Positions 23,550 to 41,743 of a stretch of DNA of 64,000 nucleotides are shown here, piece by piece; position 1 is the first letter of the stretch, and each line of letters opens with the position of its first letter. This stretch comes from Shigella phage SHSML-52-1. The notes beneath the pieces are model-generated. The model was not told where the DNA came from and did no database searches. It saw nothing but the letters and a program-made list of their open reading frames with translations. Where the stretch lies: the sequence record KX130865. One strand, 5' to 3'. Both the position numbers and the translations under genes were made by a program.

Positions 23550-23735
23550 ATGAAACGCGCTGAACTGATTCGTAATGTTGCTGTAGTAATTGCTTCAATG
23601 GCTTTTAGTTTTTCGATGTTTGTAGGATTCATTTGTGGACTACTGACAACAACTGAAAATTCTATCTCATTGGTAGTAGCATTTCTAATCGGTTTAATCG
23701 CTATTGTTATGGATAAAATTGCAAAAGGTGAGTAA
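23550..23735 (+). CDS. small membrane protein (two predicted TM helices)
   Basis: 61 aa, hydrophobic stretches VAVVIASMAFSF and LVVAFLIGLIAIV; GAGGAG SD. Confidence 0.5.
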   Translation: MKRAELIRNVAVVIASMAFSFSMFVGFICGLLTTTENSISLVVAFLIGLIAIVMDKIAKGE

Positions 23736-31699: not shown

Positions 31700-32005
31700 A
31701 TGAAATTAGGCGAAACCAACCGAATTGGTCTTTTAACAATATTTGTATCACTTTTTTACGCAGCTCTTTCTGTTGCAGTATTACAAAAGGCTTACAGTAT
31801 GGATGGTGTTCCTGGTTTTGTATTCTTATCGCCGTTTTTGCTATTCGTTGGAGCATTGTTATTATATGCCACGACTAGTTTCGACCATAACGTCTGGGTC
31901 AATTATAAATGTAAATTGTCTGAAGAAGAACACGCAGAAGCTCGTAAAAAAGCTATTGAATCTACCAATCTAGAAAATTTCATTAAAGAATGTCGAGGAA
32001 AATAA
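31700..32005 (+). CDS. small membrane protein, FIKECR-tail family member C
   Basis: 101 aa; two hydrophobic helices; ends ...ENFIKECRGK two nt before the next ATG. Confidence 0.55.
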   Translation: MKLGETNRIGLLTIFVSLFYAALSVAVLQKAYSMDGVPGFVFLSPFLLFVGALLLYATTSFDHNVWVNYKCKLSEEEHAEARKKAIESTNLENFIKECRGK

Positions 32006-35885: not shown

Positions 35886-36425
35886 ATGAGAACATTTTTA
35901 ACTGGTCCTTATCTATCCCTGATGAATGCTTTTACACACCATTCTGATGCTAGAGTAGAAGAAATTTGTAAGAACGGTTATGCCCCACCATTTGAAGACG
36001 TACTCAAGCAGTACTGTACACTTCGTTTAGACGGCGGCAGACAATCAGGTAAATCAATTGCTGTGACTAACTTTGCTGCTAATTGGCTGTATGATGGTGG
36101 AACAGTTATTGTTCTTTCTAATACTTCAGCTTATGCTAAAATTTCTGCTGGCAACATTGAAAAAGAATTTTCTCGTTATTCTAGCGATGATATTCGATTC
36201 CGTTTATTTACTGATTCTGTCCGTAGTTTTATTGGCAATGAAGGTTCTAAATTCCGTGGATTAACGCTTTCTCGTATTCTGTACATAATTGACGAGCCTA
36301 TTAAAGCTCCTGATATGGATAAGATTTACAATGTCCATATTAAAACAGTCCAACACTGTTGCAAAAGCAAATATTGCATCGGCGGTATTGCTCGTCCTCA
36401 ATTTTTTGTGATTGGAATGCAATGA
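35886..36425 (+). CDS. small P-loop NTPase-like protein
   Basis: 179 aa; Walker A-like GGRQSGKS and Walker B-like ILYIIDE. Confidence 0.5.
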   Translation: MRTFLTGPYLSLMNAFTHHSDARVEEICKNGYAPPFEDVLKQYCTLRLDGGRQSGKSIAVTNFAANWLYDGGTVIVLSNTSAYAKISAGNIEKEFSRYSSDDIRFRLFTDSVRSFIGNEGSKFRGLTLSRILYIIDEPIKAPDMDKIYNVHIKTVQHCCKSKYCIGGIARPQFFVIGMQ

Positions 36426-36730
36426 TGACCGCTATTGAAGTTTTTGAATATTGTTATAACAGCCCAGTATGCAATAAAAGGGCTCTTGTAGAAAATTACG
36501 AGATTTACCATTTTAAACCTAAACGATACCGTTTGACTAAAGGTCCGTTCGCAGGGCAGCAGGTTCTTTGTACTGCTCCTAATGCACGGTTGATGACTAG
36601 TATTCCGCATTTCAAAATGGAATTTATTGATGGGCCGTTTAAGGGATTAATCACTCAAAGTTTAATGGCGTTTAATTCTGACCCATTTTTGATTAAAGAA
36701 AAAACTTGGATAAATTTATTTTCTAATTGA
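36422..36730 (+). CDS. hypothetical protein
   Basis: 102 aa from ATG 36422 (ATGATGA overlap with upstream stop). Confidence 0.5.
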   Translation: MMTAIEVFEYCYNSPVCNKRALVENYEIYHFKPKRYRLTKGPFAGQQVLCTAPNARLMTSIPHFKMEFIDGPFKGLITQSLMAFNSDPFLIKEKTWINLFSN

Positions 36731-36736
36731 GGTTAT

Positions 36737-37099
36737 ATGAAAGCATATCAAATTCTTGAAGGCACACACAAAGGCACTATTTATTTTGAAGACGGTACTC
36801 AAGCCCGGATTATTGTCTCTAAGACTTTTAAAGAAGACGCTATTGTAGACCCGGAAATTTTCTACGGTTTACATGCCCGCGAAATTGAAATTGAACATCA
36901 ACCTAAAGTTAAAATTGAAGGTGGTCAACACCTGAACGTTAATGTTCTGCGTCGTGAAACTCTGGAAGATGCAGTTAAGCATCCAGAAAAATATCCGCAG
37001 TTGACCATCCGTGTATCCGGTTATGCAGTTCGCTTTAACTCTCTGACTCCGGAACAGCAGCGTGACGTTATCGCTCGTACCTTTACTGAGAGTCTATAA
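36737..37099 (+). CDS. autonomous glycyl radical cofactor (GrcA/YfiD-like)
   Basis: 120 aa; C-terminal half [60 protein letters not shown] matches the E. coli GrcA glycyl-radical domain as I recall it. Confidence 0.85.
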
Positions 37100-37323
37100 T
37101 GGCTAAATTGATTATAGAAGGGTCTGAAGATGTTTTAAAATGTTTTGCCGCCTGGTTTAGTTGCTCAGGCGAGCAATCATTCATTGAAGCATTTAGAATG
37201 GGTGATATTACTGGAAACTATCCGGCAACTGATATCACTGTACGTGGATATGGTATTAATGAGCCTATCCAATTGGTCGAATATGACCTTGCCACCGATG
37301 AGGAAATTCCTTATGTCGATTGA
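37099..37323 (+). CDS. hypothetical protein
   Basis: 74 aa; TAATG overlap with upstream gene. Confidence 0.5.
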   Translation: MAKLIIEGSEDVLKCFAAWFSCSGEQSFIEAFRMGDITGNYPATDITVRGYGINEPIQLVEYDLATDEEIPYVD

Positions 37324-37579
37324 AGATATTAAAGGCTACAAGCCACATACCGACGATAAAATCGGTAAAGTGAACGCTATTAAAGATGCAGAAGTCCGTC
37401 TTGGATTGTTGTTTGATGCTCTGATTGAAGAAGCATATATCTTGAAAGAAAATGAAACAGAGCAACAAACCAAAGAAGATATGGATGCAGTACAGGCTCT
37501 TAAGTATGCTAAGCAACATCTAAAAGAAGCCAGCATGTGGGCCTGTCGTGCAGTATTTCGACCTGAGGAAAAATACTAA
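37313..37579 (+). CDS. hypothetical protein
   Basis: 88 aa from ATG 37313; chosen over the 144-aa overlapping track ORF from 37145. Confidence 0.45.
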
Positions 37580-37878
37580 TGGCTCAAATCCTATCGGGCT
37601 TTGGAACTCATTATGAAGCATCTCGACGCATAACTGAAAGCAATCCTTTTGGCCTTGTTCCGAAGCACAAGAAAATTCAAAGCCTTGATGACTTTGAGAA
37701 CCGCCTATGGGCCCTCTTTAATGAGTACAAGGCATATCTGAAAGAAGACGCTGACGATTGTCTTGAAGAAGATGAGATTGCGTATTACGAACAACGCCTT
37801 GAACAGCTCAAGAACTTCCATCAGGTTCGTGACGAAGTATCTAAAGCAGTTAAAAAGTTAATTCCTTTCAAAGAGTAG
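37579..37878 (+). CDS. hypothetical protein
   Basis: 99 aa; ATG overlaps upstream stop. Confidence 0.5.
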
Positions 37879-37926
37879 TTTACTTCTCCTCTAGTTGTGT
37901 TACTATAGACTTGTCAACTAGAGGAG
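37878..37926 (+). promoter_or_regulatory. regB early promoter cassette with 12-bp perfect inverted repeat containing the SD
   Basis: GTTTAC 37878-37883; TACTAT 37901-37906; arms CTCCTCTAGTTG 37886-37897 and CAACTAGAGGAG 37915-37926. Confidence 0.65.
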
Positions 37927-37934
37927 AAATCAAA

Positions 37935-38393
37935 ATGACTATCAATTCGGAAGTTTTTATCCGCCGTAATAAACTCCGTCGAATCTTTGAAACGGAGTTC
38001 CGCAAAATAAATGCCGGTATAAAAGATGCTGCAAAGTCTCTTGGACTACCAGGCTTTCATATCAAGTATTCTCAACATCTCTTAGATCGTGCCATCCAGA
38101 GAGAAATAGATGAGAATTACGTTTTTGAATTATTTCATAAAGTAAAAAATCATGTTAAAGAAGTTGCAGAATTTTTATCAATGCCGGCACGTCCAGATGT
38201 TGATGAAGATTTTGTCGAAGGTGTCGAATATCGCCCAGGCCGTTTAGAAATAACTGACGGAAATCTTTGGTTAGGACTTACAGTTTGTCGCGAAAATCCA
38301 GCATTCAAAATGAAGACTCTTCAATGCAGAATGGCTATTATTAACAGTAAACGACTACCAGGAAAAGCTTCTAAAGCAGTGATTAAAATCTAG
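37935..38393 (+). CDS. regB: RegB site-specific endoribonuclease
   Basis: 152 aa beginning MTINSEVFIRRNKLRR and ending RLPGKASKAVIKI, near-identical to T4 RegB. Confidence 0.92.
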   Translation: MTINSEVFIRRNKLRRIFETEFRKINAGIKDAAKSLGLPGFHIKYSQHLLDRAIQREIDENYVFELFHKVKNHVKEVAEFLSMPARPDVDEDFVEGVEYRPGRLEITDGNLWLGLTVCRENPAFKMKTLQCRMAIINSKRLPGKASKAVIKI

Positions 38394-38401
38394 AGGTAAA
38401 C

Positions 38402-38944
38402 ATGAGAAAAGCACTACTCGCTGGTCTATTTGCTCTTTCGTTATCAGCACATAGCTCCGAGCATACTTTTAGTAATGTCCAACTCGATAACTTGAATTAT
38501 GCTTATCAGTTTGGGGAACAGTTTTCTAAGGATGGAAAATTTAAAACGCATGAAAATATGCATAAGAAAGGACTTGGATACATAATGGCCGCAATACTAT
38601 GGCAGGAATCATCTGCCGGTATTAATCTTAAAGATAAGAAAGGTCACCATGCGTATGGAATGTTCCAAAACTATCTACCAACAATGAGGGCAAGAATTAA
38701 CCAGCTTGGTTATAATATGACTGATGCCCAAATTAAGAAAATGCTATCTAAGCGGTCTAATTCAGCAAGATGGGCTTATATCGAATTTTCTTATTGGTTA
38801 AATATACATAACGGGGATATAAGAAAAGCTATATCCTCATATAATGCGGGATGGAAGACAAGTGCTGGAAGTAAATATGCTTCTGAAGTCCTAGAAAAGG
38901 CTAATTACCTTAAATCAAATAAACTACTGGAAATAAAAGAATGA
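38402..38944 (+). CDS. secreted lytic transglycosylase-like protein (SLT/lysozyme-like fold)
   Basis: 180 aa; signal peptide MRKALLAGLFALSLSAHS; catalytic-like ILWQESSAG and MFQNY, YNAGW motifs. Confidence 0.6.
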   Translation: MRKALLAGLFALSLSAHSSEHTFSNVQLDNLNYAYQFGEQFSKDGKFKTHENMHKKGLGYIMAAILWQESSAGINLKDKKGHHAYGMFQNYLPTMRARINQLGYNMTDAQIKKMLSKRSNSARWAYIEFSYWLNIHNGDIRKAISSYNAGWKTSAGSKYASEVLEKANYLKSNKLLEIKE

Positions 38945-39288
38945 CCAAAATGTTGGCTTTAATAGTTGGCTTGGTTTCATTTAACGCTCTTGCTAATACT
39001 ACATATACTGATGTAACGGAGTATACAAACAGAACGGCGTCTGATTATTGTGGTAAAAGTCAAGAGTGTAAAGTAGATTTTTCACAAAAATTGTTATATG
39101 CGTATAAAGACGGAGAAAAAGATGGGGCGTCTAGTAGGTTCAAGGCGTCTACCTTAATTAAAAGATACTATAAAAAATGGCAAATATTAGAATGCTCGGT
39201 GGCGGAACCTAAAGATAAGGCAGCATGCAATTCTATGGTGGACCGTCTAGTTGACTCTTATACTAGAGGACTTGCAGCAAGTGATTAA
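38941..39288 (+). CDS. secreted cysteine-containing small protein
   Basis: 115 aa; signal peptide MTKMLALIVGLVSFNALA; 5 Cys. Confidence 0.5.
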   Translation: MTKMLALIVGLVSFNALANTTYTDVTEYTNRTASDYCGKSQECKVDFSQKLLYAYKDGEKDGASSRFKASTLIKRYYKKWQILECSVAEPKDKAACNSMVDRLVDSYTRGLAASD

Positions 39289-39748
39289 AAACTATATCAA
39301 GGGCGATATTGTCGCCCTGTTTTCTAAAGGTAATAATATTGCTCATGGGTGCAATTGTTTTCATACAATGGGCGCTGGTGTAGCAGGTCAATTAGCAAAG
39401 GCTTATCCAAAAATTTTAGAAGCCGATAAACTTCAAACCGAATTCGGAGACGAGTCTAAACTCGGTTCCTATTCGGTTTATGAAAAATATTTTAAGACCC
39501 ATAAAGCTTATTGCTTTAATCTTTATACACAGTTTGAGCCGGGACCTAATTTTGAGTACTATGCTTTAATGAATTGTATAATAGAATTAAATGAATTCGG
39601 AAAAAATAAGATAACAAAGCCTGTAATTTATATGCCAAGAATTGGTGCAGGTATAGGTGGTGGAAACTGGGATATCATTGAAGAAATTCTTGATACATAT
39701 TCCACTAAACTAGAAATTGTGATTGTTGATTGGGAACCATTATTATGA
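39281..39748 (+). CDS. macro-domain-like protein (possible ADP-ribose binding/hydrolase); start codon uncertain
   Basis: No in-frame ATG near the 5' end; GTG 39281 is preceded by AGAGGA; motifs GNNIAHGCNCFHTMGAGVAG and PRIGAGIGGGNW resemble macro-domain ligand-binding loops. Confidence 0.45.
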   Translation: MIKNYIKGDIVALFSKGNNIAHGCNCFHTMGAGVAGQLAKAYPKILEADKLQTEFGDESKLGSYSVYEKYFKTHKAYCFNLYTQFEPGPNFEYYALMNCIIELNEFGKNKITKPVIYMPRIGAGIGGGNWDIIEEILDTYSTKLEIVIVDWEPLL

Positions 39749-39957
39749 ATGTGCATTACCCACATCCGTTTGATCCTAAAAATAAAGCAGTAATTATTCG
39801 TCAATGGGAACGCATTTGTCGTACTAAATGTCCAATTAATAGTCCACATGATGTCGATAAAGACTACATTGGAACATTCGTTGAATATACCTTTATTGAT
39901 AAGAAAGGTCGTAAACAGCATGTAGAAGAATACTGCTTAAAGGTGACATGGTTATGA
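39745..39957 (+). CDS. hypothetical protein
   Basis: 70 aa from ATG 39745 (ATGA overlap). Confidence 0.45.
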   Translation: MNVHYPHPFDPKNKAVIIRQWERICRTKCPINSPHDVDKDYIGTFVEYTFIDKKGRKQHVEEYCLKVTWL

Positions 39958-40139
39958 GTTTAAGTAAAGAACAAAAAGACAAACTCTTTTCTCTTATCCA
40001 CGAAGTTATGGATAAAAATAGCGAATTGGAAAAAGTTTGTAATGAATGCGGTCCTTTTAATACTGACGAATACGAAGAACTGTGTAAAGATTTTGACGAT
40101 AAAGAGCAAGAACTTATTGATTATATAAATTCATTATGA
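39948..40139 (+). CDS. hypothetical small acidic protein (paralog of next gene)
   Basis: 63 aa; LSKEQKDKLFSLIHEV aligns with ITREQKNEILFLVGEI of the next ORF. Confidence 0.45.
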   Translation: MVMSLSKEQKDKLFSLIHEVMDKNSELEKVCNECGPFNTDEYEELCKDFDDKEQELIDYINSL

Positions 40140-40333
40140 TTACTCGCGAACAAAAGAACGAAATATTATTTTTAGTTGGTGAAATTATTAGTTTAGAAAA
40201 GGATTTGTCTTTTGAAATATCTTCTGAATATGGAGATGCCGAAACATATTACGAATTAGTAAAATCTATCAATAAAGCTGAAAATGATTTAGAAACATAT
40301 TTAGAAAATTTAACTAAGGACTCTTATGGCTAG
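40136..40333 (+). CDS. hypothetical small acidic protein (paralog of previous gene)
   Basis: 65 aa; overlaps both neighbours by a few nt. Confidence 0.45.
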   Translation: MITREQKNEILFLVGEIISLEKDLSFEISSEYGDAETYYELVKSINKAENDLETYLENLTKDSYG

Positions 40334-40907
40334 TTTAATTTTTACCTATGCCGCTATGAACGCTGGTAAGTCTGCTTCATTACTTACTGCCGCACATAAC
40401 TATAAAGAACGTGGCATGGGTGTATTAGTTCTTAAACCGGCTATTGATACTCGTGATTCAAAAGGTGAAATAGTCTCTCGTATTGGTATTCGTCAGGATG
40501 CCAATATAATTACAAAAGACATGGATATCTTTGAATTCTATAAATGGGCTGCAGCACAAAAGGATATTCACTGCGTATTTGTTGACGAAGCTCAGTTCTT
40601 AACTACTGAAAAGGTGTATCAACTTAGTCGTATTGTTGACGTATACAATGTGCCGGTAATGGCATATGGACTACGAACAGATTTTAAAGGTAATCTATTT
40701 GAAGGTTCTCAAGCATTAATGGCTATTGCCGATAAGCTTGTTGAACTTAAAGGTGTCTGTCATTGTGGTAAAAAGGCCACAATGGTAGCTAGAGTCACGG
40801 AAGACGGTCTTCCAATTACAGATGGCAGTCAAATTGAAATTGGTGATACCGATAGATATGTGTCATTATGCCGGAAGCATTGGAATGATTTGACAGGGTT
40901 GTTATAA
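40326..40907 (+). CDS. tk: thymidine kinase
   Basis: 193 aa as in T4; P-loop AMNAGKS, VDEAQF, zinc ribbon CHCGKKAT...C. Confidence 0.92.
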   Translation: MASLIFTYAAMNAGKSASLLTAAHNYKERGMGVLVLKPAIDTRDSKGEIVSRIGIRQDANIITKDMDIFEFYKWAAAQKDIHCVFVDEAQFLTTEKVYQLSRIVDVYNVPVMAYGLRTDFKGNLFEGSQALMAIADKLVELKGVCHCGKKATMVARVTEDGLPITDGSQIEIGDTDRYVSLCRKHWNDLTGLL

Positions 40908-40934
40908 ATACTAATATCTAACCAAGAGGTATAT

Positions 40935-41147
40935 ATGCAGCAATTAAACGAAAGACAACTTCGTAATCTTACTGTAACCCAATTGGATGAAATCCGAAGA
41001 GAATTAGGACATTCTATTTCTCATTTAAACGAGGATATCCGTCAAACTGGTTCTAAAGCTGATTATACACGCAAGCGAAAGCTGGAAAAATACCTCGCAG
41101 ATGTTAAGGCCGTCCAAAGGCGAAAAATAAATACTGGCCAAAATTAA
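40935..41147 (+). CDS. hypothetical protein
   Basis: 70 aa basic helical protein; AAGAGG SD. Confidence 0.5.
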
Positions 41148-41159
41148 CAGGAGGCCTAT

Positions 41160-41462
41160 ATGGCCTTAAGAGCGATAGCCATTGTGGCGATGCTGGGGTT
41201 TTTTGCAGCAACGACTCCTATTGTTGGCACTGCATATGTTGACCCATACTTTGATAACTTTATGGAATCAGGGATTAAAAACGTATATACTTTGTTCGAA
41301 ATTCAAAATGTTGAGAATTCTGAAAAATTTTATAAGTATATGGCAAAGCATTACAAAAATAGCCCCTGTGATGATGCATTTGAATGCCAGGAACAAGGCA
41401 TAAAAACTGCCAGACAATTTGCTGAGTTCATGAAAATAAAATTAGAGCCTACATCTATCTAA
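41160..41462 (+). CDS. rI: lysis inhibition regulator rI (antiholin-binding periplasmic protein)
   Basis: 100 aa; signal-anchor MALRAIAIVAMLGFFAA; VDPYFDNFMESGIKNVY...KNSPCDDAFEC close to T4 RI; adjacent to tk as in T4. Confidence 0.85.
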   Translation: MALRAIAIVAMLGFFAATTPIVGTAYVDPYFDNFMESGIKNVYTLFEIQNVENSEKFYKYMAKHYKNSPCDDAFECQEQGIKTARQFAEFMKIKLEPTSI

Positions 41463-41469
41463 TTTACTA

Positions 41470-41496
41470 GCCCCTTCCTTATGGTTGGGGCTTTTT
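41470..41496 (+). terminator. intrinsic terminator, copy 3 of 3
   Basis: GCCCCTTCCTTATGGTTGGGGCTTTTT right after the rI stop; identical stem-loop to 26358. Confidence 0.7.
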
Positions 41497-41507
41497 GGCG
41501 TCTATCA

Positions 41508-41557
41508 GTTTACTTCTCCTCAGGTTGTGTTATAGTAGTCTTTACTTACTAGAGGAG
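41508..41557 (+). promoter_or_regulatory. early promoter cassette (-10 TATAGT; CTCCTC/GAGGAG arms)
   Basis: GTTTAC 41508-41513; TATAGT 41531-41536; right arm GAGGAG 41552-41557 is the SD of the next ORF. Confidence 0.55.
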
Positions 41558-41563
41558 AACGTT

Positions 41564-41743
41564 ATGACACGTAAAGAAAAGATTTCTAAGTTGATGTTTT
41601 TGATTGAAGAGTACGCTAATGCGGTATCTGATTGGGAAAATGCTCATGGTTGCGAAGATGGAGACATCGACATTAACAGAGCTATGAAAAAGATGGCCGA
41701 CGCCCACACTGAATTGCAAATGTATGTTAACGAGATTATGTGA
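41564..41743 (+). CDS. hypothetical protein
   Basis: 59 aa from ATG 41564 (GAGGAG SD). Confidence 0.45.
   Translation: MTRKEKISKLMFLIEEYANAVSDWENAHGCEDGDIDINRAMKKMADAHTELQMYVNEIM

Follow-up and report, generated by a model that had tools for sequence, protein, structure and literature searches.

Two predicted exported proteins encoded after regB in a T4-like Shigella phage: vs.1, a putative lytic transglycosylase, and Vs, the annotated valyl-tRNA synthetase modifier

Two consecutive open reading frames (ORFs) lie directly downstream of regB in a 64,000-nucleotide stretch of the genome of Shigella phage SHSML-52-1 (sequence record KX130865), which we refer to as the window. As judged from their sequences, they are the named T4 genes vs.1 and vs, that is, ordinary conserved genes of T4-like phages. 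On balance, we lean toward the view that vs.1 and vs form a translationally coupled periplasmic module within a + strand run of genes starting at regB. Going by its motifs, vs.1 is very probably a lytic transglycosylase with a single domain, exported by Sec as a soluble protein. We hold the biochemical class and the compartment of the module with fair confidence; our confidence in a partnership between vs.1 and Vs, and in the physiological role of the two, is low. Both genes are known and named, and the resemblance of vs.1 to soluble lytic transglycosylases (SLT) has been published. Interest remains in the putative vs.1 enzyme, since among large lytic phages (Straboviridae, Ackermannviridae, and Felixounavirus) ~2,000 deposited genomes encode predicted secreted transglycosylases of its type. 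What vs is called does not agree with what its sequence suggests, and this conflict is of greater interest. For decades, the vs product has figured in the literature as a modifier of a host aminoacyl-tRNA synthetase, and a recent report ranks vs first among T4 genes for fitness in minimal medium.

The first gene (38402–38944, + strand, 180 amino acids) matched phrog_600 (E 3.7e-67) and has the same length and the same place between regB and vs as T4 vs.1 (NP_049725, phrog_600), from which it shows no difference of substance. The second gene (38941–39288, + strand, 115 amino acids) matched phrog_1256, "valyl tRNA synthetase modifier" (E 5e-35). Its membership in the ValRS_modifier family is given by a match of PF26829 to a protein (P0121) that is 98% identical to the window's Vs, and it is the ortholog of T4 Vs (PF26829, phrog_1256), with which it shares length and position. 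A search of NCBIfam returned no match for vs.1 or Vs. The original prediction for this DNA, which had placed two consecutive ORFs directly after regB, was right about the arrangement and very probably about the SLT-type class of the first protein, but it missed that the two were named T4 genes. The roles it proposed (periplasmic remodelling, superinfection exclusion, or lysis timing) find support neither for nor against in these data; the functional data for T4 vs.1 show a non-essential gene with fewer insertion reads per site than the genes around it.

The assignment of vs.1 to the lytic transglycosylases comes from conserved residues. The vs.1 family comprised 128 homologs of 160–200 amino acids, from which 31 diverse ones were taken to count conservation and Pfam matches. 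Across these 31 homologs, E69, S70, S71, G86, Q89, N90, Y147, N148, G150, and Y159 were invariant. The predicted catalytic Glu69 sits in a W-Q-E-S-S motif (Glu codon at 38606–38608, + strand; E69-S70-S71 at 38606–38614), and the groove motifs of the SLT class were also present: Y-G86-M-F-Q89-N90, of the G-L-M-Q type, and S-Y147-N148-A-G150-W, of the A-Y-N-x-G type (SLT motif III, with Y147-N-A-G-W151 at 38840–38854, + strand). The E-S-S and YNAGW motifs had been singled out beforehand as those of soluble lytic transglycosylases, and the invariance of E69, S71, Y147, N148, and G150 bears this out. The predicted fold of vs.1 is lysozyme-like and alpha-helical, with a single catalytic-type Glu placed in an E-S motif. 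No Asp was invariant among the 31 homologs, which would favor lytic-transglycosylase chemistry over hydrolysis. Pfam SLT was matched at E ≤ 0.01 by all but two of these relatives (29/31), with a best E of 1.3e-7.

Profile alignments bear on the putative catalytic residue. With hhalign, W-Q-E69-S of vs.1 fell on R-Q-E505-S of the Slt70 precursor and Y-G-M-F-Q fell on S-G-L-M-Q; we equate E505 of the precursor with the catalytic Glu478 in mature Slt70. E69 likewise aligned with the RES-motif Glu of g-type lysozyme. When the vs.1 family profile was compared with PDB sequences, only insignificant matches were obtained (g-type lysozyme, E 0.55), which are of use for the position of the Glu alone. 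From these motifs and alignments we infer that vs.1 has enzymatic activity, and it would be the third peptidoglycan enzyme predicted in T4 besides e and gp5.

The resemblance to SLT proteins has been described before. A marginal yet conserved SLT match of vs.1 was reported in six T4-like genomes by Nolan 2006 (PMC1524935), which credits earlier PSI-BLAST matches of vs.1 to lysozyme to its ref. 15, and several sources already name vs.1 orthologs "Transglycosylase SLT domain-containing protein". The literature contained no assay of a vs.1-type transglycosylase as far as we found, and searches for vs.1 together with "periplasmic" or regB gave nothing. Relative to the GH23 family-1 lytic transglycosylases (the E. 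coli Slt70 catalytic domain, MltE/EmtA, MltC, MltF, and specialized ones such as EtgA), vs.1 shows only 12–18% identity. It differs from them as a small protein of one domain, in an N-terminal helix and hairpin particular to its family (residues 23–58), in being soluble rather than a lipoprotein, and in being encoded by a phage, within the + strand run after regB.

Both proteins are predicted to be exported. Signal peptides were called with a heuristic of our own rather than SignalP, which required a positive n-region, an uncharged h-region of 7–15 residues, small residues at −3/−1, and no further membrane span. By this heuristic, predicted Sec signal peptides cover residues 1–18 of vs.1 (MRKALLAGLFALSLSAHS, followed by SE; 38402–38455, + strand) and residues 1–18 of Vs (MTKMLALIVGLVSFNALA, followed by NT; 38941–38994, + strand). 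It was passed by 30 of the 31 vs.1 relatives and 36 of 38 Vs relatives, the exceptions being truncated or mis-started ORFs. The N-terminal 18–20 residues of both proteins drift freely in sequence while their architecture is kept. Structure models gave a low predicted local distance difference test (pLDDT) for residues 1–20 of vs.1 and a value below 55 for residues 1–19 of Vs, with the rest of each protein modelled well. It had been claimed at the outset that the signal peptide of the first protein is cleavable: the Sec architecture is there at both N-termini, and cleavage is itself a prediction. The features point to export and cleavage of both proteins, with a predicted mature vs.1 of ~162 amino acids (18.7 kDa, pI 9.6) and a predicted mature Vs of ~97 amino acids (11.0 kDa).

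Among the 162 ATG-initiated ORFs of the window, 8 passed the heuristic, and only vs.1, Vs, and RI did so without a second hydrophobic segment. Two small ORFs, at 23550–23735 (+ strand, 61 amino acids) and 31700–32005 (+ strand, 101 amino acids), have a strongly hydrophobic N-terminus plus a second hydrophobic segment and are probably small membrane proteins. The RI antiholin, encoded ~2 kb downstream (41160–41462, + strand), served as the positive control. In T4, RI is small, soluble, and periplasmic, and both the cleavage of its Sec signal peptide and its location have been proven experimentally (PMC8385771). RI differs from Vs and vs.1 in its unrelated sequence and in binding the holin. The window's RI has a clear signal peptide (…IVGTA/YVD). 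Exported-type proteins of this region (RI and Vs) are among the most diverged between the window phage and T4, with amino-acid identities of 53% for RI, 67% for Vs, 78% for regB, and 82% for vs.1.

Variants of the N-terminus bear on the compartment as well. One Vs clade (L036–L038, L040, and L061, on IMG/VR contigs of ~102–173 kb) starts with MKKLFVLLVVFALSGC, in which a lipobox, L-S-G-C, replaces the signal-peptidase-I site. A Vibrio-phage relative of vs.1 is likewise a predicted lipoprotein. To the extent that these signals are read correctly, both cases would be hard to reconcile with a cytoplasmic life.

The AlphaFold2 model of Vs (pLDDT 86.5 overall and above 90 for residues 25–112) is a predicted four-helix bundle with helices at residues 20–37, 41–64, 69–85, and 90–113. 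Two pairs of cysteines flank the turns of its hairpins: C37 and C43 at the turn between helices 1 and 2 (39049–39069, + strand), and C85 and C96 at the turn between helices 3 and 4 (39193–39228, + strand). All four are invariant in the 38 relatives and in divergent Acinetobacter-phage versions, and their placement in the model suggests disulfides that staple each hairpin. A zinc site of the Zn(Cys)4 type in place of the two disulfides is less likely, because Vs has a predicted signal peptide and C96 lies two turns into helix 4. The second protein had been credited with five cysteines, which does not hold for the window's Vs, where we count four (C37, C43, C85, and C96); the T4 protein has a fifth, inside its signal peptide.

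The most conserved part of Vs is its C-terminal helix, S98–L111 (SMVDRLVDSYTRGL; 39232–39273, + strand), which is invariant or nearly so in members from enterobacterial phages (consensus SMVDRLVDSYxRGL). Acinetobacter phages have a sequence of the YKNQLMLKYMTGLLDR type in its place. Vs as a whole evolves faster than its neighbors, with a mean p-distance of 0.58 versus 0.27–0.41. Its fold gave no functional lead, with no fold or sequence likeness to the known inhibitors Ivy, MliC/PliC, PliG, and Spackle. An exhaustive HMMER search with Vs yielded 7 representatives, and this narrow family was widened only by profile and by looking downstream of vs.1.

The two genes are tightly joined. A GAGG Shine-Dalgarno sequence for vs.1 (38393–38396, + strand) overlaps the stop codon of regB, and vs starts on the ATGA that ends vs.1 (38941–38944, + strand), with no recognizable Shine-Dalgarno sequence of its own, an arrangement that suggests translational coupling. 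The pairing was followed in 74 loci, made up of 70 IMG/VR loci with vs.1 relatives and four from GenBank, using one round of profile iteration and a 2.5-kb flank. A vs-family gene began −8 to +7 nucleotides from the vs.1 stop codon in 59/74 loci, ranging from Escherichia to Acinetobacter phages; it lay 0.5–1.2 kb downstream in 8, and none was found within the 2.5-kb flank in 7. Acinetobacter phage Acj9 keeps the pair, and there the gene downstream of vs.1 carries PF26829. Overall, 2,059 phage records had a match to vs.1 and 794 had a match to vs.

Several relatives of vs.1 stand in other surroundings. Secreted SLT proteins resembling vs.1 occur outside the T4 family in Salmonella phage GEC_vB_NS7, a Felixounavirus (L078, 1408–1956), and in Kuttervirus PLL1 (L077, 1408–2025). 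Signal peptides are likewise seen in the Ackermannviridae and Felixounavirus relatives, which have no vs beside them. The Felixounavirus gene lies between rIIB and polynucleotide kinase, near an i-spanin gene, is annotated "lysin", and has no adjoining vs-like gene. In Aeromonas phage 31, where vs.1 is not followed by vs, the second gene after vs.1 (L005, 3868–4308) encodes a 146-residue protein with a lipoprotein-like N-terminus (MKKSIATLIAIGMYGC), which might be a non-homologous replacement for Vs.

Taken as a coupled periplasmic module, the pair could work as follows. The vs.1 precursor would carry a Sec signal peptide, and the released product would be a basic, soluble protein of ~18.7 kDa. 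Its predicted GH23 / family-1 lytic-transglycosylase fold would present Glu69 as the single acid/base catalyst, with the YGMFQN and SYNAG motifs lining the glycan groove, such that bonds between N-acetylmuramic acid (MurNAc) and N-acetylglucosamine (GlcNAc) in the sacculus would be cut. It would act on the sacculus of the infected cell without lysing the cell. T4 phages lacking e fail to lyse although they carry vs.1, and vs.1 therefore cannot be bulk-lytic. Vs would be exported likewise and would fold into a bundle of four helices (11 kDa) with a disulfide stapling each of its two hairpins. In the periplasm, it may associate with vs.1, or with a conserved envelope target, as partner or modulator. 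Physiologically, the pair would probably adjust the wall of the infected cell, a function that is not essential and counts for more in minimal medium.

Functional data for T4 are available from a 2025 preprint on HIDEN-SEQ (doi 10.1101/2025.11.20.689424). It classed vs and vs.1 as non-essential on LB and reported that vs, the annotated modifier of valyl-tRNA synthetase (ValRS), is the most depleted gene in M9 glucose, as confirmed by knockout. We took mean reads per site in LB and M9 from the authors' Data S8 table. Reads fell from 26.6 to 5.0 in vs (log2 fold change −2.19, adjusted p 0) and from 22.6 to 11.9 in vs.1 (−0.87, p 0.0055, adjusted p 0.155). For regB, they were 178.6 and 403.0 (+1.17, p 0.049, adjusted p 0.80). 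Differences were not significant for vs.3 (652.1 and 626.2, −0.06), tk.4 (289.6 and 275.0, −0.07), and tk.3 (767.3 and 753.7, −0.03). Across several libraries, vs and vs.1 had about 6–40 times fewer reads per site than regB, vs.3, tk.3, and tk.4; in LB the shortfall was already some ten-fold, and two other libraries agreed. This reads as a mild fitness cost common to both genes, although insertions in vs.1 may act through polarity on vs.

The more specific claim, that the ORF annotated "valyl-tRNA synthetase modifier" is really an exported, disulfide-stapled periplasmic protein working with the vs.1 transglycosylase, is one we put forward tentatively, as a serious possibility that falls short of being probable. 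If it were true, the classical vs function would belong to another ORF of the rI–e interval, or ValRS would become modified once cells are broken and their periplasmic and cytoplasmic contents mix. In that case, the defect that the vs deletion showed in minimal medium in the 2025 work would concern the envelope and not translation. A periplasmic Vs would also mean that the ValRS literature and the family name need re-reading.

Several observations weigh against the coupled periplasmic module. The window's vs.1 itself scores 18.8 bits (E 0.0013) to Pfam SLT PF01464, below the gathering score of 21.3. In phages of Aeromonas, in Ackermannviridae, and in Felixounavirus, vs.1 has no vs next to it, and it therefore does not need Vs. 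A mirror-tree comparison over 38 loci gave a partial r of 0.23 for vs.1 and Vs versus 0.24–0.25 for tk.4 controls, a result we judged uninformative. The low insertion counts in vs.1 could be due to a polar effect on vs. Moreover, Vs is annotated everywhere as a modifier of the host ValRS, a cytoplasmic enzyme. The predicted signal peptide therefore contradicts the annotation and is more than a curiosity. T4 does modify ValRS in vivo, according to the classical literature.

The main rival explanation accepts that annotation. Only vs.1 would then be an envelope enzyme, and Vs would be a cytoplasmic tau-type factor that binds the host ValRS, its N-terminus not used, or not used efficiently, for export and its adjacency to vs.1 an accident of tight phage gene packing. 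Such a role fits the uniform annotation across records and families, including the Pfam name of PF26829, and it fits the minimal-medium phenotype: loss of vs impairs T4 specifically in M9 glucose, a medium in which amino acids have to be made, and the HIDEN-SEQ authors read this as a translation-related need. The C-terminal helix, invariant in enterobacterial phages, would suit a highly conserved host target, and the mirror-tree comparison shows no signal of co-evolution with vs.1. What this explanation does not fit are the topology signals. To meet ValRS in vivo, Vs would have to reside in the cytoplasm, as its family name implies, whereas the features found in silico point to the periplasm: a signal-peptide architecture kept in 36/38 relatives despite sequence drift, a lipobox in one clade, and four invariant cysteines placed as hairpin staples. 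Internal initiation was considered as a source of signal-less Vs and rejected, there being no Met between residues 5 and 98 in the T4 or the window protein. Adjacency to vs.1 is also kept across genera in the 59/74 loci. T4 Vs has a calculated precursor mass of 13.06 kDa and a predicted mature mass of 11.0–11.2 kDa. The mature value lies nearer to the ~10–11 kDa presumably found for the purified factor, and if that figure holds, Vs would be processed and hence exported. Overall, we consider a cytoplasmic Vs somewhat doubtful.

A different relationship within the periplasm would make Vs a dedicated inhibitor that holds vs.1 off the wall until needed, comparable to T4 Spackle and gp5 lysozyme or to Tsi3 and Tse3. 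Spackle (sp) is a small periplasmic inhibitor of gp5 lysozyme. Like Vs, it is a small signal-peptide protein of a phage that makes a peptidoglycan glycosidase, and may thus offer a functional analogy. An inhibitor would agree with the shared predicted compartment, with coupled translation giving a fixed stoichiometry, and with the failure of e-minus T4 to lyse despite having vs.1. Insertions in M9 were also worse in vs than in vs.1 (−2.19 versus −0.87), as expected if loss of the inhibitor alone is worse than loss of the enzyme, or than loss of both through polarity. Yet relatives of vs.1 exist with no vs nearby, insertions in vs.1 are under-represented themselves, and the mirror-tree comparison lacks a co-evolution signal, leaving an inhibitor role unlikely in our estimation.

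We regard it as highly improbable that vs.1 is instead an auxiliary endolysin of the signal-arrest-release (SAR) type, tethered and inactive through an uncleaved N-terminal segment until the holin depolarizes the membrane and frees it to contribute to lysis. Its h-region is rich in Ala, Gly, Ser, and Leu, as this would call for, and the Felixounavirus relative is annotated "lysin" and lies near spanin genes. Nevertheless, SAR endolysins have an uncleaved, weakly hydrophobic span of ~18–20 residues, and the uncharged stretch of vs.1, at 13 residues, is too short to span a membrane. It is followed by an A-H-S/S site, and such sites are kept in relatives, some of which have lipoprotein signals. 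Moreover, a canonical holin and a cytoplasmic endolysin are already present in T4, which can do without vs.1.

The surrounding region is that of a Tequatrovirus. Positions 37900–39800 are 99.3% identical to Escherichia phage Mizar, and most of this segment is contained in 467 phage records. The + strand run matches T4 gene by gene (vs.6, vs.5, vs.4, vs.3, regB, vs.1, vs, tk.4, tk.3, tk.2, tk.1, tk, rI.1, and rI), and the order regB-vs.1-vs-tk.4 is common to T4, VR26, and F48. Relative to T4, the vs.1/vs locus is among the more divergent parts of the surrounding genome region. Its vs.1 is 99–100% identical to genes of many deposited Tequatroviruses, and the locus belongs to a minority allele group, with ~150 records at ≥95% nucleotide identity versus ~500 at 60–80%. 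Further upstream, the vs.6 ortholog (36737–37099, + strand) has a glycyl-radical motif (RVSGYAV) and shares 95% identity with T4 vs.6, whose annotation is GrcA (autonomous glycyl radical cofactor).

Upstream of vs.1, regB encodes an endoribonuclease (37935–38393, + strand; Pfam REGB_T4 E 4.3e-69, phrog_1323). Its ATG start codon at 37935 is preceded by GAGGAG, which contains GGAG (37921–37937, + strand), and the TTG start at 37911 given by the ORF finder is probably wrong. GGAG is the motif cleaved by RegB, and its presence here fits regB autoregulation. A sigma-70 promoter scan of 36300–41600 gave 17 hits versus 19.1 in shuffled sequences, with no listed site upstream of regB.

Downstream of vs, the tk.4 ortholog (39281–39748, + strand) encodes a protein with a macrodomain (Pfam Macro E 4e-6). 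The likely start codon is the GTG at 39281, which gives an 8-nucleotide overlap with vs, rather than the TTG at 39251 given by the ORF finder. T4 tk.4 was named AdfM, an anti-DarT2 factor, in the HIDEN-SEQ preprint (doi 10.1101/2025.11.20.689424). Inside the 5' end of tk.4, 12 nucleotides past the vs stop codon, lies a hairpin with 8 GC-rich base pairs followed by GTTTTCT (39300–39318, + strand; AGGGCGATATTGTCGCCCT). Its folding energy is −13 kcal/mol (z −3.3), and its sequence is unchanged in T4 and VR26 but differs in Klebsiella phage F48. The hairpin could act as a terminator or attenuator or stabilize the mRNA at the end of the regB-vs.1-vs unit; alternatively, it may be conserved just as coding sequence (K-G-D-I-V-A-L).

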